A stretch of DNA of 31,781 bases from Fidelibacterota bacterium. Lineage in GTDB: Bacteria; Fidelibacterota; UBA2242; B5-G15. The notes beneath the pieces were generated by a model, which saw only the letters and a list, made by a program, of their open reading frames with translations, was not told where the DNA came from and did not search any database. This document shows, in pieces, positions 3,900 to 30,228 of this stretch. The position numbers and the translations under genes are program-made. How positions within the stretch are numbered: the first letter of the stretch is position 1; each line of letters opens with the position of its first letter. The stretch lies in the NCBI GenBank assembly GCA_003645825.1, contig QNCQ01000001.1, positions 1-31,781 on the forward strand. Reading direction: 5' to 3'.

Positions 3900-5426
3900 T
3901 TTTTCATAGCTGGGTATTAAAGTAAAATCTATATTCCCTCTTTCAAATTTGAAGAAGAATTTTCTGTTTCCCCATACTACAACAAGATTAAGAAAAGAAT
4001 TTGTCCTGCCATGAAAAGTAAAAGTGTTTCCGGCGCTCCTCTTAACCTCGATGGAGACAATGTTATCCCCAAAATGGAGATTTTTAATCCCCCATCTCTT
4101 CATTCTTGAAGGCAGACGAATAAAGAGCTTATCTTCAGGAGCTGACGGAACGAAGCCCATTAGATGCTCGATCACCATAGATATAGCAGCGAGTCCGACA
4201 AAGCTTGACACCTCGGAGCTGCAAAAGCATTCGTTTTTCCAGTCTGTGGCAGGAGCTACAAAGTCCGGGGAGTAAGCTTCCCACACTTTTCCTCTTCCTG
4301 CGGAGGGATTTTCTCCCGCATACACCCTGCAAATTACCTCTATTAACCGCCATGCAATTTCCCTTGATAAAGAGTAGTACCCGTATTCAGATAAGGAGTT
4401 TATCAGCATATAAACGATAGAAGGCCATACAGCACCCCGCCAGTAAAACCCCTCCGAATGAAAAAAAGGTTCTGAAGCGGCAACTGAGGGAACCGAAAAT
4501 CGCCTGAGGAATTTTGTAGTATCTCTGAGAGCTGAAAGCAGGTATTCAAGTCTTTCTTCTTTAGCAACTCCCGCGATGATTGGCCAGAAACCAGATATTG
4601 TACGGCATCTTATAAAACGCCCTTTTTCGTCAACATTGTAATAAAATCCTGTTTCTGAATCCCACAAATATTCATTAATATTCCTGGAGATATTGTTGCA
4701 CTTTTCCTTGAAAAAAGCTTCTGCTTCTGCATCACCCACAATACGGGCTATTTTGGCCATATCTTTGGCAAATAGTGCCATCTGGGAGGAGATATCAACT
4801 CCAGCCCCTTCGCCATAATCACCGGATGGTAGGTTTATCATTCCTGAACCGAGAACGGAGTTTCTATACAGATCTACCCTCCTGCCTTTTAGATGTGTTG
4901 CACAGTTGCGATCAAGCCAATGAAAATACTTTTTAAGTACTTTGAACACCTTCTCCAGTCTCTGAGTGTCAGCGGTTACCTCAAAAAGTTTCAGCTCGGC
5001 CGTGGCAAACAGCGGGGGATGAATTAATAGCTCCTGTCGAGAAGGCTGATGCAGAGGTGTCCCATCTTTTACAAAGTAGACCCTTGCAATAAAACCGTCT
5101 TCCCTTTGCCCCCGATAGAATTGATCCAGAGTCTCTTTTATGAGAGATCTTCTGAAATGATAAACCCCGAAGAGAGCTGTGTATATAGTCTTATTCTGAA
5201 CAATAAAGTTCTCATCTGATAAAAGGACCCTTGTAGATTTTCCATTGACAGAGACATCAGTAATTTCGCTACGAAACAGGTGCCAGACGTGGTTGTAAAT
5301 TCGCTGGACCAATGGATAGTCAGGAATCTCTATCGTGGGATAGTCGGGGGATCTACAAGAACAGGTACTCAATGTTAAGAGAACAAGAAATAGAAATGTT
5401 ATTTTACCTAAATTTGAAGTGGACAC
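3885..5426 (-). CDS. GH63/MGH1-like (alpha/alpha)6 glycoside hydrolase-like lipoprotein; putative catalytic Asp replaced
   Basis: Lipobox-like LSTCSC; HPPLFA, LWDSETGFYY, YWRGAVWP and VWEAYSP motifs; SGMINLP where the family has SGMDNSP. Confidence 0.75.
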   Translation of the reverse strand: MSTSNLGKITFLFLVLLTLSTCSCRSPDYPTIEIPDYPLVQRIYNHVWHLFRSEITDVSVNGKSTRVLLSDENFIVQNKTIYTALFGVYHFRRSLIKETLDQFYRGQREDGFIARVYFVKDGTPLHQPSRQELLIHPPLFATAELKLFEVTADTQRLEKVFKVLKKYFHWLDRNCATHLKGRRVDLYRNSVLGSGMINLPSGDYGEGAGVDISSQMALFAKDMAKIARIVGDAEAEAFFKEKCNNISRNINEYLWDSETGFYYNVDEKGRFIRCRTISGFWPIIAGVAKEERLEYLLSALRDTTKFLRRFSVPSVAASEPFFHSEGFYWRGAVWPSIVYMLINSLSEYGYYSLSREIAWRLIEVICRVYAGENPSAGRGKVWEAYSPDFVAPATDWKNECFCSSEVSSFVGLAAISMVIEHLMGFVPSAPEDKLFIRLPSRMKRWGIKNLHFGDNIVSIEVKRSAGNTFTFHGRTNSFLNLVVVWGNRKFFFKFERGNIDFTLIPSYEKLSQQ

Positions 5427-5450
5427 TTTAACTTCTGCAGTAACCAGTAC

Positions 5451-6485
5451 TTATAGAGTCATTTCTTCAGCGATAAACCCTAAGCTCAAATAGTTTCCAT
5501 CGGGCTTTGTTCCGTAATCAAGGTCCACCTGGTACAAATCAAGCAGGTGTTTTAACCCTTCAAAAGTCCAGTCCAGATTAATCTTTTCTACAAAGCAACC
5601 TGTGTAAGTGTTTGAATCCAGCAGCACTTTTTCAATTGCGGATTCAACAAGCTCTTCAAGTGAAACACCATTGCTTGAAAAATTTATGTGTACCTTTCCA
5701 TCTTTATAACCTGTTTCAACTCGTATAAATCGATCCCCCTTATCTTCCACACTTTTAAAAATGATGTAGAAGAACGCAAGAAATATTTGCGAAAGGTCTA
5801 GAAATCTCCCCCTGACCATTCTGGGTAGGTTATTTAAAACCACCTCTTTTCTTATTTTATGCTTTACATAGGAGTTTGCATTCAGAAATTCCATGTTCAC
5901 TTTGATGATAATGTTAATGTCAATAGTCCCTTCTTCATTTTTCATTTCTTTTATGCTTTTCAGGCTAACATTATCAAAAATGTCCTGGATTTTTCTAATT
6001 TCAGTTATTAGAGAGGTCATCTGATCTGGTTCAATGCCCTTCATCTTCATTATCTGAATCTTGTTTAACACTACCGTCATAGGATTGCTAACGTTGTGAA
6101 TAATACCTGGAATACTACATCCCATAAAGGCAAAGCTTTTTATTTTCCTTTTTATATTGCTTAATGGTTCCAGGAAGGATAGTAAGTACAACTCTCCATT
6201 CTCTTCGACAGCAATAGTTCTAAAGACCACAGGAATTTTTTCTGAGTGTACGCTGCAGACCACCACACTTTCGGCATAAGAGTTCTTTAGAACTTCCTGA
6301 AGGTGTTCTTCAATAGCTGCTGCACTATCTCCAAACACCTCTGCGACTTCGGCGTACTCTCCCGATAGAGAAATTCCAAGCAGATTTTTTATCAGCTGGG
6401 AAATATGAACAACTTTTCCTTCTCTAAAAACAGCAAAAGGAATCTGTAGTTTATTAAAGAGCTCCAAAGGTATATTGAACTTCAT
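5451..6485 (-). CDS. PAS-like domain histidine kinase homolog with degenerate ATP-binding domain
   Basis: H-box GIIHNVSNPMT (H130); HATPase-like strand/helix order but N, G1 and G2 boxes not conserved; no TM segment evident. Confidence 0.7.
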   Translation of the reverse strand: MKFNIPLELFNKLQIPFAVFREGKVVHISQLIKNLLGISLSGEYAEVAEVFGDSAAAIEEHLQEVLKNSYAESVVVCSVHSEKIPVVFRTIAVEENGELYLLSFLEPLSNIKRKIKSFAFMGCSIPGIIHNVSNPMTVVLNKIQIMKMKGIEPDQMTSLITEIRKIQDIFDNVSLKSIKEMKNEEGTIDINIIIKVNMEFLNANSYVKHKIRKEVVLNNLPRMVRGRFLDLSQIFLAFFYIIFKSVEDKGDRFIRVETGYKDGKVHINFSSNGVSLEELVESAIEKVLLDSNTYTGCFVEKINLDWTFEGLKHLLDLYQVDLDYGTKPDGNYLSLGFIAEEMTL

Positions 6486-6569
6486 TCATAACTCCAAAAA
6501 GTCTTAAAGTTCGCTCCAATAAACTGCCCTTCTGCGTTCTATATTAAACAAAAACCTAATCTTTTCCAA

Positions 6570-6598
6570 TTTATATTTTGGGGACAACAAATTGACAA
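6570..6598 (-). promoter_or_regulatory. Predicted internal promoter for the HK-GH63 unit
   Basis: TTGTCA-N17-TATAAA on the minus strand in the 129-nt gap after rho. Confidence 0.4.
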
Positions 6599-6614
6599 AG
6601 GGAAAATTCGCTCT

Positions 6615-7898
6615 TCACTGATTCATTGTTTTCAGAAACTCCCTGTTATCCTTTGTTTTCTTCATTTTATCGATCAAAAACTCCATAGCTTCTATAGGGT
6701 TCATTTCGTTGAGAAGTTTTCTGAGTATCCACACCCTCTGGAGCTCCATGGGGGTCAGGAGCAATTCTTCCTTTCGGGTACCTGACCTGTTTATATCCAT
6801 AGCGGGAAAAATTCTTCGATCACTCAAACGTCTATCGAGCACGAGCTCCATATTACCAGTTCCTTTAAATTCCTCGAAAATCACATCATCCATCCTGCTA
6901 CCTGTATCGATAAGTGCAGTAGCAATAACAGTAAGGCTCCCCCCTTCTTCTATATTTCTGGCAGATCCAAAGAACCTTTTTGGTTTGTGTAAAGCATTTG
7001 CATCAATTCCACCTGATAGAATTTTACCACTGTGCGGTACGACAGCATTATGGGCCCTGGCAAGCCTTGTAATACTATCCAGGAGAATGACCACATGATA
7101 TTTCAATTCAACCATCCTTTTGGCTTTTTGGAGAACCATTTCCGCAACCTGGACGTGTCTTTCCGGAGGTTCATCAAAAGTAGAGCTAACAACTTCAGCC
7201 TTCACTGATCTTTCCATATCCGTTACTTCCTCAGGCCTTTCATCAATCAGCAGAACAATCAGAATTATTTCTGGATGGTTGGTTGTTATACTATTTGCAA
7301 TTTGCTGAAGAAGAGTAGTTTTGCCGGTTTTAGGCTGGGCTACTATCAGACCTCTCTGGCCTTTGCCAATAGGACACAACAAATCCATTATTCTCATCGA
7401 AATATTGTCAGAATCTACTTCTAATTTTATCCTATCCATAGGATACAGCGGGGTCAGGCTGTCGAACGGAGTACGATTTTTAACTACTTCCGGGTCCATC
7501 CAGTTAACCGCTTCAACTTTCAAAAGAGCAAAGAATTTTTCATTGTCCTTTGGAGGCCTTATTTCACCGGATACAATATGCCCTGTCTGAAGGCTGAAGC
7601 GTTTTATCTGCGATGGCGAAATATATATGTCATCTGGTCCAGGGAGGTAACTCTGCTTTTCGGATCGTAGAAATCCATACCCCTCGTCAGTTACCTCGAG
7701 TACCCCTGTAGCAAATAGTTTCCCACTGCGGAACGCTCTCGCTTCCAGAATCTTGACAGCCAACTCGTGCTTTCTTAGATCTCCTGAGCCATCGACTCCA
7801 TAGCGGTGAGCAAGTTCAATTAGCTCTTTTGTCTTCATTGAATGCAACTTTGCGATGGTAAGTTCATCTTCCATTTTATTTACTACCTCTTCTTTCAT
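6615..7898 (-). CDS. rho: Transcription termination factor Rho
   Basis: [71 protein letters not shown]. Alternative start at ATG 7874. Confidence 0.98.
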
Positions 7899-7913
7899 TG
7901 TTTCTAAACCCTC

Positions 7914-9197
7914 TCAAGGACAAATGTTAGGATTTCCAATGTTACTATACACATCCTGAGCAATATAATGACTCCCTAGAATAAGCAAGATCCCTTCCTT
8001 GTTTTGCACATAATCTTTTAGAAATGCCCCTAAATCTCCTGAGCTACAAAGAAGTTTCTGTTCACTCGTATACTTTTCAATCAGTTCTCTCAAGTCCCGA
8101 AAACTGTAGAACTCACTTGATTTTGCTATAATGTAAATGTTACCCCGTAAAATTGCAAGTAGTTTTCCTATATTTTTCACTCTTTTTGTTTTTTTTAGAG
8201 CAAGAACCACATCAATTTTTTCCTCGGGGAAAAGCTCTCTCATACTCCTGACGGTACTGGCAATACCCGATGTATTGTGTCCCACATCATAGAATATATA
8301 AGGATTTTTATGAACAATCTCAAGTCTTCCAGGCCACCTAACAGATTCAATGCCTCTCAGAAAAGACAACTTATCTATTTTTATCCCGAATCTTCTTTCA
8401 GCTGAACTTACTGCAACAAGTCCGGTAGCAAGGTTTTCAAGCTGATGCCTCCCATGAAGCGGATACTTTACTCCTTTGATGGTTGAATTATAAAAATGGA
8501 TATCCACTTTTTGATTGTCGATGCTGAAGTCGATTCGAGAAACCTTACAGTACATAGGGGCATAGCAAAACGAAATCCCTTCCTCGGTGCAGAATTCTGT
8601 TAGAAACTTCTTTACAATATGATGCTGTTTCCCTATGACACACTCTGCCCCTTTTTTTATTATCCCGGCTTTCTCCCGGGCAATGTCACGAACTTTCTTA
8701 CCGAGTTGTTTTTCATGGTCTTTTGATATACGAGTTATTACAACAACCCCTGGAGAAATGACATTTGTAGCATCCCATCTACCACCCATTCCGGTCTCAA
8801 CTACCGCAAAATCAACATCCATTTCTTTAAAATAGTAAAAAGAAAGAGCTGTTGTAACTTCAAAAAAGCTGGCCTCCATTTTATCTATCTCTTTTCTAGT
8901 TGAATTAATAAACTCAACAATAAAGTCATCGGGAATATAAACATCGTTTATACGTATCCTTTCGTTATACTTTGCAAGATGTGGAGAGGTATAAAGTCCC
9001 ACTCTATACCCGGCACTTTTGAGTATTGAGTACATCAGAGCGCAAGTGCTTCCCTTACCATTGGTTCCGGCAATGTGGATGAAATTTAACTTCTTTTCCG
9101 GGTTGCCAAGATACCTGAGGAGCGATTTTATCCTTTCCAGCCCTGGCTTTATCAGAGAGGGTTTCAAGTTGTAAATATATTTTTCTACCAGATTCAT
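7914..9197 (-). CDS. folC: Folylpolyglutamate/dihydrofolate synthase
   Basis: HIAGTNGKGST, GLYTSPHL, FFEVTT, VETGMGGRWDATN, IAREKAGIIK, WPGRLE, DVGHN. Confidence 0.95.
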   Translation of the reverse strand: MNLVEKYIYNLKPSLIKPGLERIKSLLRYLGNPEKKLNFIHIAGTNGKGSTCALMYSILKSAGYRVGLYTSPHLAKYNERIRINDVYIPDDFIVEFINSTRKEIDKMEASFFEVTTALSFYYFKEMDVDFAVVETGMGGRWDATNVISPGVVVITRISKDHEKQLGKKVRDIAREKAGIIKKGAECVIGKQHHIVKKFLTEFCTEEGISFCYAPMYCKVSRIDFSIDNQKVDIHFYNSTIKGVKYPLHGRHQLENLATGLVAVSSAERRFGIKIDKLSFLRGIESVRWPGRLEIVHKNPYIFYDVGHNTSGIASTVRSMRELFPEEKIDVVLALKKTKRVKNIGKLLAILRGNIYIIAKSSEFYSFRDLRELIEKYTSEQKLLCSSGDLGAFLKDYVQNKEGILLILGSHYIAQDVYSNIGNPNICP

Positions 9198-9210
9198 TTA
9201 TGTATTGAAT

Positions 9211-10014
9211 TTATTCAAGGTAAATCTTTCCAACTCTCTTCAGATTTTCTCCAGTAAAAAGCTTCGCCATTTCTTCAAATCGTTGGGGAAAATCAGAAAC
9301 ATAGAAAGCATCTTCCCTTGCAGTTTCACCTTTTGATAGAATTCCCTCTCTCTTTAATAGTTCATGAACTTCCCGAGCAACCTCTACTGAGGAATCTATT
9401 ATTCTGACATCTCCATCAACATATTTTGCAATGACATGTTTTATAATAGGGTAGTGAGTGCATCCAAGGATCAAAGTGTCTATTTCCCCCCTCAACGATT
9501 CCAGGTAATATCTTACCACCATTTCCACAATTTCCCCATCGGTCATACCTTCTTCGACAAGTGGCACAAACAGTGGACACTCTTTTTGAATAACCTTGAT
9601 CTTACTATTCATAGAGCTTATTGTATCTTTGTAAGCTCCGGAGTTCATGGTTGCTCTGGTTCCAATAACGCCAATGTTGCCGCTTTTTGTTACGGAAACC
9701 GCTTTCTTACAAGCAGGTTTAACCACACCAATAACAGGAACACTTATCTCCTGACTTAGCAGATCGAGAGCAACACTTGATGAGGTATTACATGCTACCA
9801 CAATTAGCTTTACTCCCTTTTTTTCGAGAAACCTGGCTATTTCCAGAGAGTATTTCCTCACTGTTTCATTACTTTTTGAACCATAGGGCAGTCTCGCTGT
9901 ATCTCCGAAGTAGACAATATTCTCCTTCGGTAAGAGCTTTTTTATCTGTTTCACTACTGTCAGACCACCCAGCCCTGAATCAAATACACCTATTGGCGAA
10001 TTTCTAACCTCCAC
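9211..10014 (-). CDS. murI: Glutamate racemase
   Basis: IGVFDSGLGGLTV, PYGSKS, VACNTSS, LGCTHYP (both catalytic Cys present). Confidence 0.97.
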   Translation of the reverse strand: MEVRNSPIGVFDSGLGGLTVVKQIKKLLPKENIVYFGDTARLPYGSKSNETVRKYSLEIARFLEKKGVKLIVVACNTSSSVALDLLSQEISVPVIGVVKPACKKAVSVTKSGNIGVIGTRATMNSGAYKDTISSMNSKIKVIQKECPLFVPLVEEGMTDGEIVEMVVRYYLESLRGEIDTLILGCTHYPIIKHVIAKYVDGDVRIIDSSVEVAREVHELLKREGILSKGETAREDAFYVSDFPQRFEEMAKLFTGENLKRVGKIYLE

Positions 10015-11548
10015 CGGCTACTTCCTTCTCACAAACATTTTTAAACCCTACTATACTCTCGTACAGAGCTTGTGCTATTAACTGCCTGTATCTGGGGGAA
10101 TTGAGTTTTCTTTCGTCTTCCCTGTTAGAAATGTACCCCAGCTCGCAGAACAGACTTGGCATCGAAGCTCCTATCAACACATAAAATCCGGCCTGTCTCA
10201 CCCCTCTATTTTTCATGGGTACAATCTCGGTGAATTTCCTCGAGACTATTTCGGCCAGTCTTTCACTGTCTTTCATGTAAGCTGAGAAAACCATATTCGC
10301 CAGAATATTAGATATATCATCATAGCCTTTGTACTTCTCTCTATCCGCTTCTGTTTCCAGCTTTATAACAGAGTTTTCTTTCTCTGCCACGGCTATTGCT
10401 TCTTCTGATCTACCGGGCCTGAGCAGGTAAAATTCAACTCCTGAAATTTTCCTGTTGTCACAGGCATTAACATGTATGCTGATGAAAAGTTTTCCGTTAG
10501 CATTATTTGCTATCTGTGTACGCTTCCATAGGGGAAGGAAGGTGTCCGTTTTTCGTGTATAGACCACTCTTAGCTTTCCCTTAGTTTCAAGCAGCCTTCC
10601 AAGACGTAACGCTATATCGAGGGCAATATCCTTTTCATTTAGTCTGCCCCTTCGCCTCAGCGTTCCCGGGTCCTTGCCACCATGTCCGGGATCCAGAACC
10701 ACTGTATCTATAAACCACCGGGTTCTGGCTTTTTCTATTTTTTCTTTTACCCTTTCTCTATCTGGATAAAACAGAGATACCAGTACCTTGCTTGATGCAA
10801 AATCATAGTGCACATCCGAGGAGTTAAATTCTCTGACAAGCTTAAAAATGAACTGCACAGATTCGTTTAACTGCATACACTCCACAGTTTTAAGTAGAGA
10901 CGACCTATTTTCTACAATCAGCTTAGAAGTATCAACTTCCGCAGCGTAAATGGTCAGGTAGAATTGATCCCCCTTTCTGAAATAATATGAAAAGTTGTTG
11001 TCTGGTATCGGCCTGTCCACATCAATGAGAGCAACTAGGCCGTTGAATTTATCCTCAATGCTGATCTTTCGGATAGTGCTAAACACTATCTCCTTCCGGG
11101 TGAAGGTTTCGCTCCTTGGCTTTGTAATAGAATATCTCATACCTGTGGGAGTTACCCTGTAAACAAGCCGTTTAAAACTAACATCTCGCAGTATCTTCAA
11201 AAAGCTCTCAAGAGGCACATAGATCTCTTTATTCACAAGGAGGACTTTGCTTCTGAGATTCAGGGTTTTATTCCCCACTACGACAAAAGAGCTGTTTACT
11301 GTGAACTTTAATATCTTACTCGGCAAGAAAAGTAGGATCTTGCCATTGTCGGGGCGGTAATATGTTCTGAAATCGGCAGTTTTTGCAAACGTATTAAGTG
11401 AAATATATTTTACGCCACTTTTCTCAGCTATGTTGAACTTAAAATCCTTTCCTGCCTCCGGAATGTTTATCTCAATGAGATCACCGGACAAATTTCCCGC
11501 AATAACCAGAATAATTACCAGAAATTTCTTCAGCACACTTCCCCTCAC
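10004..11548 (-). CDS. N-acetylmuramoyl-L-alanine amidase (Amidase_3) with N-terminal accessory domains
   Basis: Signal peptide; LDPGHGGKDPG, NEKDIAL, FISIHVN, CELGYISN zinc/catalytic motifs intact. Confidence 0.93.
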   Translation of the reverse strand: MRGSVLKKFLVIILVIAGNLSGDLIEINIPEAGKDFKFNIAEKSGVKYISLNTFAKTADFRTYYRPDNGKILLFLPSKILKFTVNSSFVVVGNKTLNLRSKVLLVNKEIYVPLESFLKILRDVSFKRLVYRVTPTGMRYSITKPRSETFTRKEIVFSTIRKISIEDKFNGLVALIDVDRPIPDNNFSYYFRKGDQFYLTIYAAEVDTSKLIVENRSSLLKTVECMQLNESVQFIFKLVREFNSSDVHYDFASSKVLVSLFYPDRERVKEKIEKARTRWFIDTVVLDPGHGGKDPGTLRRRGRLNEKDIALDIALRLGRLLETKGKLRVVYTRKTDTFLPLWKRTQIANNANGKLFISIHVNACDNRKISGVEFYLLRPGRSEEAIAVAEKENSVIKLETEADREKYKGYDDISNILANMVFSAYMKDSERLAEIVSRKFTEIVPMKNRGVRQAGFYVLIGASMPSLFCELGYISNREDERKLNSPRYRQLIAQALYESIVGFKNVCEKEVAGGG

Positions 11549-13395
11549 TGACTGTAATATAAATGAACAATTACTTTTTTCAGCCTTCTGCCCCCAGAAT
11601 TTCCACTATAGCTGAAACCAACCTTATATGCAAAAGCAATCTCTAAATTCTCATTCAAACGCCCGCATAAAGCTATAAAAAATCTATAACCATTTCCATA
11701 CAAATTTGCAAAATCGAAATGATACGGGATAGAAGATTCAAAAATGGTAAAACCTTCCCCGTCAACAACCTGAAATTCAGAGGCTCCAGATTTTATGTAC
11801 CAATTTCTTCCAGTATATCTAAAATATGGAGAGATGGCAATGGAAGGGTGTTTGTCATGTTCCAGTCTCAGTCGCAGACTATTTTCAAAGGTAACTCTTT
11901 CACCGAGCATAAAGCTGTATCTAAAATACACTCGCTTGAAAGACCCTCCTTCAGGAATGTAATCATCAACGAAGTCTACGGTAAAATTCCCTTTGCCTAT
12001 TCCACAAATTCGTGTGCAGAACAATCTTCCCCATTTTAAGTCGTTTATGCTTTCATAACTAAGACGCTGATGAAAATCTGTGAGCAGTTTAACTTTCAGT
12101 TTCCGGAATTTTCTTTCGATTATATAAAGCATCCCTTCTTCATCCGAGTTATACCCGCTGAAATATTTCCTAGTTGATCCGAGTCTGTAAAAATGGTTTT
12201 CGCTCAAGTATCTGTAGCTTATTCCGAAACCAGCACTTTCAACCGTAAACACCAGACTTCCTGTGAAATTGAGTTTACCATTGATCACCAACATCTCGCA
12301 TCCAAAATCTACAAATTCACCAGCTGTTGCACAATAAAATGAAAGAGCTTTTATTTGCTTAGAGCAGCCCATATATTTCAAATACCTGTTATAAGAGGCA
12401 AATGATACCATACAACCCGCTGATACCTTGCCGCATTTTATATCTGCCCCGATTCCGATAACCTCCTCCCTGAGATTTTTTCTGGAGATCAGCTGACTTC
12501 CTGAGGCATGATAACCAGAATTTAAAAACTTAATCACTGTATCTCCTTCTGCATGAGAGTCTATAAAATTGCTTGAAGCAAAAAAAAGGAGGTTGTAAGT
12601 ACCGAAATTTCCAAATAGCCCCACGCCTCTAAGGAAATTGTTTTCGTCAGTGCCAGAATAGGGGGTCAATCTCGGGTTTCTGATCCTTAGGCTCCTCGCC
12701 CCAGCTTGCCTCAGCATTGAGTAAAGAGAGTTGTTGTACAGCAGCCCATATCCCCATCTCACCCTGAAAGTACCTATGGAGCATGACAGTCCGTTAGCAG
12801 GAAGTCTTTTGAGTAATACAAAGATGTTTTTACAATCGAAAAGACTCTTTTCTCCTTCGTCGTACTCCCCCGTGAAGCTGATATCAAGAAAACTACTCGA
12901 GATATTTAGCTTGAATTTATTTCTTGCTATGAAATAATTGTTTCCCTCATATAGTTTGAAAAAAGTTTGCTCCAGAATGCTCACTCTCTGTGTTGTTTCT
13001 CTTCTTAGGGAAAAGAAGCTCTTGATGAACTGTAATTCTTCTCTGTTTAACCTTGCTATTCTTTTCACATCCTGCCATGTGGAGGCGGTTTTTAGTGAAT
13101 CAAGACTTAAAAGAAGCTTATACTTTAGTTCGAAAGATATTGGGAGCTCTTCTATCTCTTCCATTGTACATCTCCTGAGATCAATAGGATTTTCTTGATA
13201 TTCAGCAAGAATATCTTCGACCTCAGTCTCGCTAATTTTGTCGCTCTCAAAGTAGTCAACAATGTAGTTGTAATCTGCTCCACATGCAGGATCTGGCCCC
13301 AGCGCTACCGAGAACAGCAGCCAAAGCCATAATATAGTGTTCCAGGCAAGATGCTGTGATTGAAATAGGCAAATGAAACCCTTATTCCTCTCCAC
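11545..13395 (-). CDS. Helix-hairpin-helix (ComEA-like) domain outer-membrane protein, FCB type
   Basis: NPIDLRRCTMEEIEELP resembles HHH_3; downstream YDEGEKSLFD, GTFRVRWGYGL and ENNFLRGVG motifs plus alternating beta-strand pattern. Start uncertain (GTG 13395 overlaps the upstream gene by 91 nt). Confidence 0.65.
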   Translation of the reverse strand: MERNKGFICLFQSQHLAWNTILWLWLLFSVALGPDPACGADYNYIVDYFESDKISETEVEDILAEYQENPIDLRRCTMEEIEELPISFELKYKLLLSLDSLKTASTWQDVKRIARLNREELQFIKSFFSLRRETTQRVSILEQTFFKLYEGNNYFIARNKFKLNISSSFLDISFTGEYDEGEKSLFDCKNIFVLLKRLPANGLSCSIGTFRVRWGYGLLYNNSLYSMLRQAGARSLRIRNPRLTPYSGTDENNFLRGVGLFGNFGTYNLLFFASSNFIDSHAEGDTVIKFLNSGYHASGSQLISRKNLREEVIGIGADIKCGKVSAGCMVSFASYNRYLKYMGCSKQIKALSFYCATAGEFVDFGCEMLVINGKLNFTGSLVFTVESAGFGISYRYLSENHFYRLGSTRKYFSGYNSDEEGMLYIIERKFRKLKVKLLTDFHQRLSYESINDLKWGRLFCTRICGIGKGNFTVDFVDDYIPEGGSFKRVYFRYSFMLGERVTFENSLRLRLEHDKHPSIAISPYFRYTGRNWYIKSGASEFQVVDGEGFTIFESSIPYHFDFANLYGNGYRFFIALCGRLNENLEIAFAYKVGFSYSGNSGGRRLKKVIVHLYYSQ

Positions 13396-14114
13396 TTTAT
13401 TATGCTCCCTATGGAAAATCTGTCAGGGTTTAGTTGATACCCCGCTACGAGAAAAAGAAATTTTATAAGCTTAACTTTTGTCCCCAACCTTAGACTAAAC
13501 GGAAAATACACGTCTTTGTATACCTCTAAAAACAGCTTTCCTGTGTCCCTGGGACTGTATACAAAACTGCAATAAAACTCCTCAGGGATATTACTTCCTG
13601 CTTTTCTGGTAAATGCCTCGGAAAAGTTTCTAAAAAGAATTGCAGAAATCAGCTTTTCTGTAAGTGAGAAGGTAAATCCCATATCGATTGATGCTCTGAA
13701 GCACATGGGGTATCCCTTTATCCATAAGCCATACAGGTTTAAGCTGGCACCAGCCCAGAAGATATCACTATACCTGTAACCATATTCGCAGTTGTAGGAA
13801 TATTCCCTGTAGAGAGAGTTGCCCAGATAGCCAACCCGCATTCTGAATAAATACCCCTTTTTCGATGTGTAGGAGGCTATAATTTCTTTTCCCTGAATAT
13901 CCTTTAATCCATAAAGATTTACATAGCTCGCCGAAAAATCGAAACCTACATCAGTAACGTAAGAAGGGTTAAGAGACATGCTACCTGCTGAAGTTACTCC
14001 CCCGATTCCGATAATCTCAGGGCTAAAACTCTGTAATTCGAACGCTGGGGAAACCATCCCCTTTAAGGCTAATAACAATAGAAAGATCAAAATACTTTTG
14101 AATCCGCGAAACAT
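13305..14114 (-). CDS. Putative PorV-like/FadL-type outer-membrane barrel, hypothetical
   Basis: Signal peptide, IGIGGV...SLNPSY (cf. GMGGA...NPAG of PorV-like barrels), amphipathic strands, IDMGF, LRLG. Confidence 0.6.
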   Translation of the reverse strand: MFRGFKSILIFLLLLALKGMVSPAFELQSFSPEIIGIGGVTSAGSMSLNPSYVTDVGFDFSASYVNLYGLKDIQGKEIIASYTSKKGYLFRMRVGYLGNSLYREYSYNCEYGYRYSDIFWAGASLNLYGLWIKGYPMCFRASIDMGFTFSLTEKLISAILFRNFSEAFTRKAGSNIPEEFYCSFVYSPRDTGKLFLEVYKDVYFPFSLRLGTKVKLIKFLFLVAGYQLNPDRFSIGSIIKWRGIRVSFAYFNHSILPGTLYYGFGCCSR

Positions 14115-14158
14115 TTCTTTACTCTTGTTTGGTTTTTGCCGCAGCGGGCTCTAAGCTA

Positions 14159-14845
14159 TTACATTTTTACCAGATCAGCGTCAATATAGATTTCCACACG
14201 TCTATTCTGAGCCCGCCCTTCCGCTGTACTGTTATCAGCTATCGGTCTGAACTCACCATATCCTAAAGCACTGAAAAACCTTTCGGGAATAGAGGTGTTT
14301 TTTATAAGGAAATCAACTACGTTTAGCGCTCTGGATGTCGAGAGCTCCCAGTTGTTGCGATATTTTCCAGAACGAATAGGGAGGTTATCAGTATGCCCTT
14401 CCACTCTGATCTCGACCTGGAGTTCAATACCTTCCTGTCTCAAAGCTCTTATAAATCTTTTAAGCTCTTCATATCTATCAAGATTCATCAGCTTTGAGCG
14501 TCCTATTATCCTTCCAAGATCACGGAGGATAGGTTTAAATTCATCTTTTATCTCTGCTTCATTGATATTGAAGACTATGGAGCTACTCATCAGAAGCTTT
14601 ATACCTTTTGTGTCTCTGGTGACCTTGATAAGGTTTCCCAGATTAGCTCCCTTGAGGTAATCTTCTATTTCCACTTTTGTCTCATTGAGCAACACGTCTA
14701 CAACCCTGTATATGTTACTCTGGGCTTCGTTGACAATAATTAGCGTTAAGACAAAGAAGGTAAGAAGCAAGGTAACCATGTCTGCGTAGGTTATAGCCCA
14801 GTACCCTTTTGGAGCTCCTGTGGACTTTCCTTCAGAGTCAGCCAT
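14159..14845 (-). CDS. motB: MotB/PomB-family stator subunit with OmpA-like peptidoglycan-binding domain
   Basis: WAITYADMVTLLLTFFVL (D22); VEGHTDN, NNWELSTSRA, GYGEFRP, NRRVEI. Confidence 0.93.
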   Translation of the reverse strand: MADSEGKSTGAPKGYWAITYADMVTLLLTFFVLTLIIVNEAQSNIYRVVDVLLNETKVEIEDYLKGANLGNLIKVTRDTKGIKLLMSSSIVFNINEAEIKDEFKPILRDLGRIIGRSKLMNLDRYEELKRFIRALRQEGIELQVEIRVEGHTDNLPIRSGKYRNNWELSTSRALNVVDFLIKNTSIPERFFSALGYGEFRPIADNSTAEGRAQNRRVEIYIDADLVKM

Positions 14846-14857
14846 CAGGCTCTTCCA

Positions 14858-15694
14858 TTATTTATAAAAATTTTCTTTCCTCTCACGAGTGGGGATAAAA
14901 GTCATGAGCTTCTCTCTGACAATCAGAGGATGTTCGCGGTTATGAAGACAGAGTATACCTTCCACCATCACCTCTTTGAGCATAAGCTCTTCTTCTGATC
15001 TTCTTTTCAGTTTTCCACCTATGGGAATGAATATCAGATTAGCAAGGATTAAACCGTAGAAAGTTGTCAGAAGAGCCATACCCATCCCGCCAAGCAGTTC
15101 TTTAAATTGAGTTGCAATATTAAAGTCCATGCTACCTATCAGAGACTCTATCCCACCTGAGTTAATTCCAGTCATGGTGAAATTTTTTAGCATAACAATC
15201 AGCCCGATGATCGTTCCAACCATCCCAAATGCAGGAGAGTATGTCCCCATGTAAAAGAAAATTTCCTGTCCCAGTTGGTGCCGTTTTTTCATATTAGAAA
15301 GCTCAAGATTAAGATAATTGCGAAGCCTATCAGGATCTCTCTCATTTATGGCAAGCTCGAGCCCGTTTCTCATGAAGGTATCTTTAATGTGTGGAAGTTC
15401 TTCCTCGAGGCTCATTATGCTATTTTTTCTTACCTTGTCCGCCAGATCAACAAATTTTTCCATTATTTCTTCATAGGTTAATTGATTTGCCTTGAAGACA
15501 TTTTTTAAAACTTTAAATACGCGCCAGACACTTTTGAAAGGGTAATTCACAAACGTGGCTGCAAGCGTGCCCCCGAGAACTAGCAAAAGAGAAGGATAAT
15601 CCCAGAAGTACTGAGCTGCTCCTTCCTTGGCGAAAATGGCGAACACTATGAGTCCAAAACCAATAATTAAGCCAAAAAGAGTTGTTAAATCCAT
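14858..15694 (-). CDS. motA: MotA/PomA-family stator subunit
   Basis: PSLLLVLGGT, RKNSIMSLEE, PAFGMVGTIIGL, ALLTTFYG, EGILCLHNREHP. Confidence 0.93.
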   Translation of the reverse strand: MDLTTLFGLIIGFGLIVFAIFAKEGAAQYFWDYPSLLLVLGGTLAATFVNYPFKSVWRVFKVLKNVFKANQLTYEEIMEKFVDLADKVRKNSIMSLEEELPHIKDTFMRNGLELAINERDPDRLRNYLNLELSNMKKRHQLGQEIFFYMGTYSPAFGMVGTIIGLIVMLKNFTMTGINSGGIESLIGSMDFNIATQFKELLGGMGMALLTTFYGLILANLIFIPIGGKLKRRSEEELMLKEVMVEGILCLHNREHPLIVREKLMTFIPTRERKENFYK

Positions 15695-15740
15695 CTGTCA
15701 GTTTCTTACTGGCTCAACTCCAAAATATAAAAAGAAATTT

Positions 15741-17359
<1,619 letters not shown>

Positions 17360-17372
17360 TCAAATCCGCACA

Positions 17373-17401
17373 AATTTAGGCTATTAAACGCTTTTTAACA
17401 A
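17373..17401 (-). promoter_or_regulatory. Predicted promoter of the eno-rho operon
   Basis: TTGTTA-N17-TAAATT; also fits Bacteroidota-type TTTG-N20-TAnnTTTG. Confidence 0.5.
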
Positions 17402-17441
17402 ACGTTCAAAAATGGGTTTTCTGAGAAATAAGGAATCAGGT

Positions 17442-17470
17442 TTGAATATTAAACCAATTAAATCTAATTT
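17442..17470 (+). promoter_or_regulatory. Predicted promoter of the four-gene radical-SAM operon
   Basis: TTGAAT-N17-TAATTT, about 35 nt before the ATG at 17505. Confidence 0.45.
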
Positions 17471-17504
17471 AGAGGGATAGCTTTCATAGCAGCGAAGAGT
17501 TGTA

Positions 17505-18080
17505 ATGAGAATTCTATTTTGCATAGCGAGTACAAGAGAGGTAAATGAGGCAAAGATAGCTACAGAACTTCGTAATGGATCAGAATTTGTTTTCCGTTAT
17601 ACTGGCGTGGGGGTGAAAAATCTCCGTGCTATAAAAGATGAGATTTTCACAGGAAACTATGACCTAGTTATAAACGCCGGAGTTGCTGGCATTCTGAATG
17701 ACAGTTTCCAGATTTTTGATGTGGTTGTTCCCTATAGATATATCTTTACTTTCGGAGGTGAAGTTCGGGAGTTACAATTTCCTTCGCCCGGGGTGAAGAA
17801 ATGGAAGGCTGGTTGTATAGTAACTACCACCAGACCTATTGCGAATGAATGTGAGAGACAGAACTTATGGAAAAGGCTTGGAGCTGATATAGTGGATATG
17901 GAGTCGTATTACCTTGCAGACCTTACTCGAAAGAAAGGAATACCTTTTTATTCGATAAAGGTCTTGACAGACAGAGCAAATTCTACCGCTGCAGTGGATT
18001 GTTTTAGAAATCTAAAAAGGGCACGGGAGATACTGTCGGATATCATTCCGATTTTTATCAGCGCCATTGATGCAATATGA
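17505..18080 (+). CDS. Nucleoside phosphorylase/nucleosidase, PNP_UDP_1 family (MTAN/HpnG-like)
   Basis: FRYTGVG, INAGVAG, DVVVP, IVDMES, KVLTDRA. Confidence 0.85.
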   Translation: MRILFCIASTREVNEAKIATELRNGSEFVFRYTGVGVKNLRAIKDEIFTGNYDLVINAGVAGILNDSFQIFDVVVPYRYIFTFGGEVRELQFPSPGVKKWKAGCIVTTTRPIANECERQNLWKRLGADIVDMESYYLADLTRKKGIPFYSIKVLTDRANSTAAVDCFRNLKRAREILSDIIPIFISAIDAI

Positions 18081-28899: not shown

Positions 28900-30228
28900 T
28901 TATAGCTTCGAAGTATACACTAGAAATGAAAACTTCACCCCTTGCATCTTTCTCAGAATAAACCCGTTGCAGAATCCTACTGCCCAGTCGATATTAACCA
29001 GACCCAAGTGGTAACCACCCCCCAAAGCAAATTCCCTTATCTCTTTTCCACCAACTGACACACCCATACGAACTGGGGCTTTTACCGATCTCAGAACCTC
29101 GACACCGATAGCAAACTTCCAGCGACCGAAGCTATACAGCCGATCTTGAAAACCCGCCACAAAATCCGAAGTCAGAACCACATCTTCAATTACTTTTGAG
29201 ACGCTGAATCTAAAAAGAGCAGGGTACTTCATTATAAAAACTGAGGTATCTCTGAACGTTCGCCCCTCTCCAACGATTATTTCGTTATAAGGAATACCCT
29301 GAAAAAATTTATCAAATCGAGCCTCATTCACTCTAAAACGGTATTCATAGAAATCCCCCTCAGAAGGGAGAATTTTCTCAGGCTTGACAAGTCTTGCAAG
29401 CAGAGTTCTTTTGTTCCAGTAAATCCGGCCAAATACATTGCTTAAAGATATCCCCAGCCTGTATCCATCTATAAGCCGGGAGGTCAAGCCAATATCAAAA
29501 GAATACCCCATACCCCCCACTGTCTGCTGGAAATAATATCTTCCTTCCCCCTCTATGTAGTTTTTCTCCGGAGTAAAATGGGTTGTGATATAACCGAAAC
29601 TCGAATCAGGATTAAACCCCATATAGAGTAATCCCTGAAGATATTTGAAAGAAAAGCCTATATTAAAGTCTTTAAACGGTACTCCAAAAGAAAAAGCCCA
29701 CTGTCCAATTCCCACAATTTCCTCATTCATCCTAAGGTCAAGAGTTTTGTTTACCTCATTCCCTTCAACAAGAAACCTGACAAGATCTTTTGCTATGCCT
29801 ATATCAGAAATGAGCAAAATATCGTAAGTAATGGCGTGATTTCCCTTTGAGTAGTTCACCATTGGTACAGGTACATGTAAGTCCATGAAAATTCGCCAGC
29901 CGACATCCGGAATTTCAGAAAGGAAAGCCTTCTTAAGCCGCTGATTATTAGCCTCAAAATCCTTACCGTTGTACTTTTTATATCTCTTAATCGAAAGAAA
30001 GTTGTTGATTACGCTAAAGCCCGCGCCAGCAATCAGTCTTACCTCGCTTACCCCATCTTTTATAGCCAGATTTGCTGGATTGTAATCAACACAGAAAAGG
30101 CCTCTGGAAACTGTACCGTAAGCACCACATAAAGCCATTGCTCTTGGATCTGTTCTCGTCTGGGAAAGAAGTACTCCATTTAGAAGAGAAGAAACTATAA
30201 GGAAAGCAAGAATATCTGAACTTCTCAT
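28900..30228 (-). CDS. Outer-membrane beta-barrel, DUF5723-like
   Basis: Signal peptide; DPRAMALCGAY...YNPANLA; SFKYLQG, GYSFDIG, NVFGRIYW; amphipathic strands. Confidence 0.6.
   Translation of the reverse strand: MRSSDILAFLIVSSLLNGVLLSQTRTDPRAMALCGAYGTVSRGLFCVDYNPANLAIKDGVSEVRLIAGAGFSVINNFLSIKRYKKYNGKDFEANNQRLKKAFLSEIPDVGWRIFMDLHVPVPMVNYSKGNHAITYDILLISDIGIAKDLVRFLVEGNEVNKTLDLRMNEEIVGIGQWAFSFGVPFKDFNIGFSFKYLQGLLYMGFNPDSSFGYITTHFTPEKNYIEGEGRYYFQQTVGGMGYSFDIGLTSRLIDGYRLGISLSNVFGRIYWNKRTLLARLVKPEKILPSEGDFYEYRFRVNEARFDKFFQGIPYNEIIVGEGRTFRDTSVFIMKYPALFRFSVSKVIEDVVLTSDFVAGFQDRLYSFGRWKFAIGVEVLRSVKAPVRMGVSVGGKEIREFALGGGYHLGLVNIDWAVGFCNGFILRKMQGVKFSFLVYTSKL

Follow-up and report, generated by a model that had tools for sequence, protein, structure and literature searches.

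Stator proteins of the flagellar type usually raise the expectation of a flagellum nearby. What, then, does such a pair do in the middle of a string of cell-division and cell-wall genes? The question is posed by a 31,781-nt stretch of DNA (the window), contig 1 of a 350-contig, 86%-complete metagenome-assembled genome (MAG) of Marinimicrobia (Fidelibacterota; the host MAG). Its genes motA1 and motB1 encode an intact stator of this type, MotAB1, directly behind the cell-division gene ftsB, and a preliminary description of the window took them for an orphan motor which, if the genome lacked flagella, might serve the envelope, the septum or protein secretion. In this study, MotAB1 is a paralogue clade found throughout Marinimicrobia and marked by a longer loop between transmembrane (TM) helices 3 and 4 of MotA and by a 25-residue helix insertion and a short linker in MotB. 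Purifying selection maintains it in genomes that have no flagellar export gate, FliM/FliN, canonical FliG or flagellar-operon MotA. Probably, it is not primarily a flagellar stator.

MotAB1 in flagellated and non-flagellated genomes

The premise that the host genome has no flagella proved false, as the host MAG carries two FliG_C genes, FlhA, three flagellin-family genes, rod and hook genes, fliF and fliM. To place the pieces of the operon, the flagellar operon of a close relative (G001) was mapped onto the host MAG. This placed fliF-fliG on contig C253 and the later genes through flhA on C67; C202 holds flgE and, behind it, the first 45 residues of a motA. The motA of C202 is cut by the contig end after these 45 aa and is 80% identical to the flagellar-operon MotA of G001 (MotA3). 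Contamination is an unlikely source of the flagellar contigs, since G001, a 99%-complete genome of the same family, has the same operon on a 230-kb contig with 65-80% protein identity. A third motA-motB pair (MotAB2) lies on host contig C161 behind a tetratricopeptide repeat (TPR) gene (L004:1201-3253), and the window MotA and MotB are 37% and 34% identical to it, respectively. Furthermore, C322 (L002) encodes a second type of FliG, FliG-B, and C104 carries a separate exbB-exbD-exbD-tonB cluster.

The term orphan thus holds for the window, in which no large open reading frame (ORF) besides motA and motB matched a fli, flg or che family, as had been claimed, but not for the genome, where flagellar genes and two other motA loci lie elsewhere. 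A complete flagellar gene set with fliG and no other stator pair would have made the window pair the ordinary flagellar stator. Instead, one of the two further motA loci stands directly after flgE in the flagellar operon, and we rejected the window pair as the sole flagellar stator.

In a maximum-likelihood tree built from 98 MotA proteins of the phylum, for which Bacillota MotA and an ExbB served as outgroups, the three types are separate. The flagellar-operon MotA3 proteins form one side of a branch with support of 100/97. The MotA1 clade, which holds the window type, comprises 64 rows (100/99), the MotA2 clade, with the C161 type, is supported at 100/100, and MotA1 and MotA2 are sisters (98/93).

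The distribution of MotAB1 was followed in 41 genomes of the host's order and in 151 genomes of the phylum that are at least 85% complete; in the latter sample, a genome was counted as a carrier if it held MotA1 at 50% identity or more. Within the order, FlhA is present in 21 of the 41 genomes. Among the 20 without FlhA, MotA1 is full-length (64-69% identity) in at least 13 and fragmentary in three more. These FlhA-less MotA1 genomes also hold MotB1 orthologues at 50-57% identity, and neither canonical FliG nor flagellar-operon MotA was found in them. Across the phylum, MotA1 is carried by 50 of 151 genomes, 38 of which lack FlhA and 12 of which (the host and 11 others) have it. Whole families, such as f19 (FlhA in 0 of 13), f20, f22 and f15, possess a MotA1 orthologue but no FlhA. 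For comparison, the phylum counts are 38/151 for FlhA, 112/151 for MotA and 118/151 for FliG_C. No match to the FliM/FliN domain FliMN_C was found in the five non-flagellate genomes examined, and the search was positive in the control genomes. Moreover, two FlhA-less genomes give a ratio of nonsynonymous to synonymous substitution rates (dN/dS) of 0.030 for motA1, and three other close pairs give 0.035-0.043. The low ratio in FlhA-less genomes indicates that these copies are not decaying.

A flagellum's own stator should be encoded or co-distributed with the flagellar genes. For MotAB1, the operon has its own motA, the clade is separate, and most carriers are without FlhA. Collectively, the separate clade, the FlhA-less carriers, the purifying selection and the association with FliG-B described below favor the non-flagellar job that had been proposed for this pair, but neither the premise nor the mechanisms offered with that proposal.

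Further MotA copies were seen in flagellated relatives. In two of them (G005:C2, L103, and G002:C16, L105), an additional MotA groups with Bacillota MotA (100/78) and may be an acquired extra flagellar stator. In a third, G008 (C6:96374-97339), MotA1 has about 50 extra residues between residues 71 and 77, and no MotB1, MotA2 or FliG-B was found in that genome; this copy may be shifting function or decaying.

Structural features of MotA1 and MotB1

The two genes and their clade-specific insertions occupy the following positions in the window.

14858-15694, minus strand: motA1, flagellar-type stator A subunit, 278 aa (Pfam MotA_ExbB 1.4e-24 and MotA_N)
15101-15172, minus strand: clade-specific insertion of MotA1 in the periplasmic TM3-TM4 loop, residues 175-198 (loop-length comparison and model)
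14159-14845, minus strand: motB1, stator B subunit, 228 aa (Pfam MotB_plug 37 bits and OmpA 59.6 bits)
14429-14482, minus strand: clade-specific insertion of MotB1 in the OmpA-like domain, residues 122-139 (alignment and AlphaFold2)

Both ORFs are intact and are separated by 12 nt. The best NCBIfam matches of MotA1 are MotP, MotA and PomA, all under their cut-offs. In the AlphaFold2 model of MotA1 (mean predicted confidence, pLDDT, 87.9), four cytoplasmic helices (53-66, 74-91, 93-102 and 106-117) lie between TM2 and TM3, and TM3 is one continuous helix (121-177). The top 23 Foldseek matches are all flagellar MotA or PomA, with TM-scores of 0.65-0.90. The nearest solved structures (8ucs, 8brd and 6ysf) score 0.78-0.90, and ExbB and TolQ reach at most 0.5. 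The rotor-contact residues R89, K90, E97 and E98 can be read straight from the translation and are kept as first described. R89 and E97 were equated with R90 and E98 of Escherichia coli MotA by motif position, not by an alignment to the E. coli protein. R89 occurs in 51 of 52 and E97 in all 52 MotA1a proteins, and P154 and P224 are invariant.

MotB1 combines a TM aspartate (Asp22), a plug and an OmpA-like domain. Asp22 is invariant in 36 sequences, and across the alignment D22, GHTD, NW, R172 and NRRVE are all invariant. Compared with the flagellar MotB3, the linker that follows the TM helix has about 32 aa fewer.

The two insertions that had been noticed in the window proteins are genuine. 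The TM3-TM4 loop measures 41 residues in the window MotA1 and 32-41 across the 52 MotA1a proteins, compared with 19 in MotA3 and Bacillota MotA and 22-27 in MotA2. In the model, the loop insertion contains a short helix (183-187) of lower confidence. Similarly, a segment of the OmpA-like domain spans 37 residues in all 31 MotB1 orthologues and 12 in MotB2 and MotB3. The AlphaFold2 model of MotB1 (pLDDT 88.5) folds this 25-residue insertion as an extra helix (126-137) followed by a long strand. Both features define the clade.

Flagellar (FIT) ion transporters have been distinguished from generic (GIT) ones by an expanded torque interface (TGI4), and FIT proteins have been treated as flagellar (Puente-Lelievre et al. 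2025, PMC12505986). MotA1 has the features of the FIT class, that is, a torque interface of at least four helices, an unbroken TM3, a MotA/PomA fold and charged rotor-contact residues, and MotB1 has the TM aspartate, the plug and the OmpA-like peptidoglycan-binding domain expected of a FIT B subunit. The motA1-motB1 pair thus encodes an intact flagellar-type stator of the MotA5B2 kind. Compared with the TGI4/FIT stators Vibrio PomAB, Clostridium sporogenes and Bacillus MotAB, and MotPS, the pair is alike in its four TM helices, four-helix interface, continuous TM3, R/E charges and MotB architecture. In contrast, it is kept without a flagellum, its TM3-TM4 loop is 13-22 residues longer, MotB1 carries the helix insertion and the shortened linker, and three families of the order encode the A and B subunits at separate loci.

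The Tol-Pal and ExbBD-TonB systems, 5:2 motors of the GIT class, resemble MotAB1 as ion-driven inner-membrane motors with a periplasmic partner, and here MotAB1 stands beside a cell-division gene. However, that class has a condensed cytoplasmic domain of two or three helices and an ExbD/TolR partner, whereas MotA1 has the expanded four-helix interface, a poor fold match to ExbB and TolQ, and an OmpA-domain partner of the MotB type; the host also has its separate exbB-exbD-exbD-tonB cluster.

The FliF-B/FliG-B rotor cluster and its association with MotAB1

Two classes of FliG were distinguished. One, of about 345 aa, is encoded in flagellar operons. The other, FliG-B, measures 310-333 aa; in some 20 genomes of the order, its gene is about 3 kb away from that of MotA2, a link also present in non-flagellate genomes of other orders. 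In G001, this rotor cluster (L027:4392-12550) reads TPR-TPR-motA2-motB2-X-fliG-B-TPR, and most of the phylum shares it, FlhA-less genomes included. FliG-B is thus a FliG paralogue that persists without the export gate. Its N, M and C domains are all present, together with a charged torque helix (QRTRIILEDEM, compared with KRAAALLKDEL in Thermotoga FliG).

The product of X (431-517 aa) consists of an N-terminal TM helix, a periplasmic domain, a coiled coil and a second TM helix, and ends in the conserved tail GQPDAA.RI..WL. A plain BLAST of X against the FliF of the host genome gave no match. A three-sequence profile of X, however, matches solved FliF (9yh6, E 2.8e-6; 6scn, E 1.3e-5), spanning residues 241-439 and 466-558 of 6scn. 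Because this match covers the RBM3 region, TM2 and the FliG-binding C-terminus, X is a stripped FliF (FliF-B) standing beside FliG-B.

The presence of MotAB1 follows that of FliG-B. In the order, 24 of the 26 FliG-B genomes have MotA1 and 25 have MotB1, while the 13 genomes without FliG-B include one with MotA1 and none with MotB1. No matching co-occurrence of MotAB1 with FlhA was found in the order. At the level of the phylum, all 50 MotA1 genomes have a FliG_C match, and the presence of FliG_C and that of MotA are nearly identical family by family, with both missing from family f11 (0/12) and genus g21 (0/11). Five non-flagellate genomes hold exactly three MotA_ExbB genes each, namely, ExbB, the MotA2 beside FliG-B, and MotA1. 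Furthermore, the complete single-contig genome G061 contains the rotor cluster and, on the strand of fliG-B and 7 kb downstream of it, a MotA1-clade motA-motB-motB set (L087:15148-17358).

These genomic patterns suggest that MotAB1 may be the second stator of a flagellum-independent FliF-B/FliG-B rotor, a proposal for which we judge the chances to be even. In such a machine, MotA1(5)MotB1(2) units would dock on the FliG-B ring through the R89/E97 charges against its conserved torque helix, and the modified OmpA-like domain of MotB1 would anchor them to peptidoglycan. Ion flow would then rotate a ring that lacks the C-ring, export gate, rod and filament, the stator either turning the ring or being turned against it. 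The enlarged periplasmic loop, present in five copies per unit, and the MotB1 insertion might form the binding place of a clade-specific periplasmic partner.

Several observations weigh against this assignment. The support is genomic throughout, consisting of the co-occurrence, the sister relation to MotA2 and the proximity in one genome. The co-occurrence itself comes from related genomes and incomplete MAGs and comes down to some four independent events of joint loss within the order rather than dozens. By gene order, the own stator of FliG-B is MotAB2, and MotAB1 is unlinked from the rotor cluster in the host and most other genomes. G008 has MotA1 without FliG-B or MotB1. Conversely, families f5, f14 and f24 hold FliG-B and MotA2 without MotA1, so MotAB1 would be accessory at most. 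In addition, conservation of the R/E charges would be expected with either rotor, and flagellated members could use MotAB1 on the true flagellar rotor as well.

Two stators on one rotor have precedents in dual-stator flagellar motors, which pair MotAB with PomAB in Shewanella, with MotCD in Pseudomonas and with MotPS in Bacillus. The arrangement proposed here is alike in having two paralogous stator pairs at separate loci, one linked to the rotor genes and the other unlinked. It differs in its proposed rotor, a FliF-B/FliG-B ring that has neither FliM/FliN nor an export gate, rod, hook or filament.

A parallel for genes kept in the absence of a flagellar gene set is found in Elusimicrobiota, where motAB and fliG were reported in genomes without structural flagellar genes and their role was called unclear (preprint 10.1101/2022.07.08.499144). 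The Marinimicrobia system is distinguished by FliF-B and FliG-B as separate genes, by two stator clades, and by the window's stator being unlinked from the rotor cluster.

Gene neighborhood and alternative roles

The genes around motA1-motB1 were assigned from the ORF list and from Pfam and NCBIfam profile matches, and they form one string from eno to rho.

16055-17338, minus strand: eno (enolase), first gene of the string (Pfam Enolase_C and Enolase_N)
15741-16058, minus strand: ftsB (DivIC family), directly upstream of motA1 with a 46-nt gap (Pfam DivIC 3.5e-18)
13305-14114, minus strand: outer-membrane beta-barrel, PorV/PorQ/PorP-like, 269 aa, directly after motB1 (structure neighbors)
11545-13395, minus strand: 616-aa protein of a helix-hairpin-helix (HhH) protein family, after the barrel (Atlas feature matches of 0.98 to HhH-domain clusters)
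10004-11548, minus strand: N-acetylmuramoyl-L-alanine amidase, Amidase_3 (Pfam 6.5e-51)
9211-10014, minus strand: murI (Pfam)
7914-9197, minus strand: folC (Pfam)
6615-7898, minus strand: rho, end of the same-strand string (Pfam)

All genes of the string lie on the minus strand, with intergenic gaps of 46 nt or less or with overlaps, in agreement with the preliminary description. Neither the 269-aa nor the 616-aa protein has a Pfam or NCBIfam match. The 269-aa protein shows a signal peptide and a beta-barrel pattern, is kept after motA1 in 11 relatives, and has Atlas structure neighbors at TM-scores of 0.83-0.88, including PorV/PorQ and PorP_SprF clusters. As motA1 is followed directly by this gene in most relatives, it was considered as a divergent MotB-like partner; this was rejected because of the signal peptide, the barrel pattern and the PorV/Q/P-like neighbors, and because true MotB1 orthologues sit elsewhere in the genomes of those relatives. 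Two other outer-membrane barrel genes of the kind associated with type IX secretion systems (T9SS) are present in the window on the minus strand, a PorV-family (PorV/PorQ) gene at 1266-2537 and a DUF5723 gene at 28900-30228.

Across the order, the arrangement eno-ftsB-motA1-barrel-616-aa protein-amidase-murI-folC is conserved, and rho is syntenic too. The position of motB1 between motA1 and the barrel gene is confined to the host's family (the host and G001). In families f2-f4 (L016-L025, L029; L081-L086), no motB follows motA1, and the MotB1 orthologue is encoded at a distant locus. There it comes after a 1715-aa adhesin-like protein and a TPR protein in some cases, and in others it neighbors a pair of cohesin-domain proteins bearing T9SS-type tails. 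Such a split of the A and B genes is unusual for stators. In other orders, the motA1-motB1 pair is intact and convergent with ftsB-eno, with folC-rho sometimes on the other side. The window, G001 and 25 loci of other orders accordingly have the A and B genes side by side. Wherever the flank of a Marinimicrobia locus extends far enough, ftsB-eno adjoins motA1, co-directionally in the host's order and convergently in the others, which indicates that the ftsB neighborhood is phylum-wide and co-transcription is not. The order eno-ftsB-motAB-amidase, singled out earlier as worth checking, is therefore preserved as eno-ftsB-motA1-barrel-amidase within the host's order, but motB1 has moved in f2-f4 and ftsB is convergent elsewhere. 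The placement of motA1 in this string beside PorV/Q/P-like barrels hints at an envelope or surface output in this order.

Other orders also show a conserved secreted protein of about 191-196 aa encoded after motB1 (L046-L071, e.g., L047:7541-8131), of which no homologue was detected in the host genome (tblastn, E 1e-3). In some genomes, a tandem second module, a 1b-subclade motA with two motB paralogues, comes right after motA1, motB1 and this third gene (L049:8383-10592, L060:8366-10581); the motA-motB-motB set near fliG-B in G061 is the same unit.

Three other roles have to be weighed against a FliG-B stator. MotAB1 might be an auxiliary stator of the real flagellum, recruited under some conditions, with the copies of non-flagellates left over or repurposed. 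This would suit the 12 carriers with FlhA and flagellar genes, as well as the full set of flagellar-stator features in MotA1, rotor-contact charges included, and BLAST places MotA1 slightly nearer to the flagellar MotA3 (40%, E 3e-75) than to MotA2 (38%, E 2e-61). The tree, however, joins MotA1 to MotA2 and away from the flagellar-operon MotA, 38 of the 50 carriers do without FlhA, and a dN/dS of 0.03 in non-flagellates argues against relics. Moreover, the flagellated f3 genera g6, g10 and g12 and the genomes G018 and G021, all without FliG-B, are also without MotA1 and MotB1. We consider an auxiliary flagellar role unlikely. An equally improbable role is that of a FliG-independent, Tol-Pal-like envelope or septal motor working with FtsB, the amidase and the barrels, in which ion flow and the peptidoglycan anchor would aid constriction or wall remodeling. 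In the window, as throughout the order, ftsB, amidase and murI belong to the near-gapless same-strand string, which fits such a motor, and so does the constant company of ftsB-eno. Six genomes show one ExbB-type protein besides the MotA paralogues, with no separate TolQ found in them, and the periplasmic insertions suggest a new periplasmic partner. Yet co-transcription with ftsB is not conserved in other orders, motB1 lies elsewhere in the genome in f2-f4, the rotor-contact residues are conserved, and presence follows FliG-B. In addition, 39 of 151 genomes, whole families among them, yielded no MotA, which ill fits a core division role. The septal or envelope motor of the earlier proposal is thus not supported, and an accessory role of that kind is possible.

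MotAB1 could also energize the T9SS in place of GldLM/PorLM, as had been suggested for PorL/PorM, or drive the movement of surface adhesins. The genomes contain SprA and 54-106 proteins with T9SS C-terminal signals each, the window holds the PorV-family gene at 1266-2537, and the gene after motB1 encodes a PorV/Q/P-like barrel. In other families, the adhesin-like protein that precedes motB1 has an FlgD_ig-type tail, and this motB1 locus, with its TPR gene, stands about 13-14 kb from sprA in two genomes. GldM was not found in ten genome searches (TIGR03517, PF12081), which had no positive control genome, and its absence is not claimed. In contrast, a motor of the T9SS should be present wherever the translocon is. 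SprA occurs in all 151 genomes, among them the 12 of f11 and the 11 of g21, which have neither MotA nor FliG, so that secretion does not depend on this motor; this result bears on secretion and not on adhesin movement. Adjacency to cargo genes is weak evidence as well, because these genes are so common. The replacement of PorL/PorM in secretion is therefore disfavored, and we regard the T9SS and adhesin explanation as a whole as very unlikely.

Returning to the FliF-B/FliG-B rotor, MotAB1, MotAB2, FliF-B and FliG-B might together constitute a stand-alone, ion-driven rotary machine outside any flagellum, present across most of the abundant marine phylum Marinimicrobia and dispensable in its most streamlined lineages. 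It would pass force to the envelope or the cell surface, for instance, to PorV/Q/P-like barrels or giant adhesins, and the periplasmic insertions would make the window stator the variant adapted to a partner in the periplasm or the outer membrane. We put forward this wider picture tentatively, as somewhat doubtful. If it is true, the torque core of the flagellum has been put to a second use as a general motor of the envelope, and the label flagellar-type stator is unreliable as a marker of flagella.

The host allows a three-way comparison within one genome of a flagellar-operon stator, a stator linked to FliF/FliG remnants and the window stator, and the family-wide pattern is that MotAB2 and MotAB1 persist under selection where the flagellum is gone. 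Both bear on the origin or reuse of the flagellar torque core and on rotor proteins in non-motile bacteria. The only cultured member of the phylum, Fidelibacter multiformis IA91, is non-motile (PMC11652737), and the question of what rotor proteins do in non-motile bacteria has been raised without an answer (PMC12199754). Among the papers searched, we found no description of this system in Marinimicrobia, none that pairs "FliG-like" with MotA and none of relevance that connects Marinimicrobia with MotA. The coexistence with a true flagellum, the order-specific wiring into the eno-ftsB...amidase string, the split of motA1 and motB1 in sister families and the SprA test are new here. For annotation, matches to motA, motB and fliG in Marinimicrobia MAGs should not count as evidence of swimming.

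Two minor observations concern the DNA of the locus. A promoter-like match (TTGAAA-16 nt-TATATT, 10/12) is present on the minus strand at 15724-15751, at the end of ftsB just before motA1. Promoter and terminator scans of positions 5000-18000 gave no excess over shuffled sequence (30 vs. 26.9 and 11 vs. 9.6), so this match carries no evidential weight. Finally, no RNA run was among the sequencing runs listed for the locus, and the DNA runs that contain it are metagenomes of marine sediment, seawater and hydrothermal vents.

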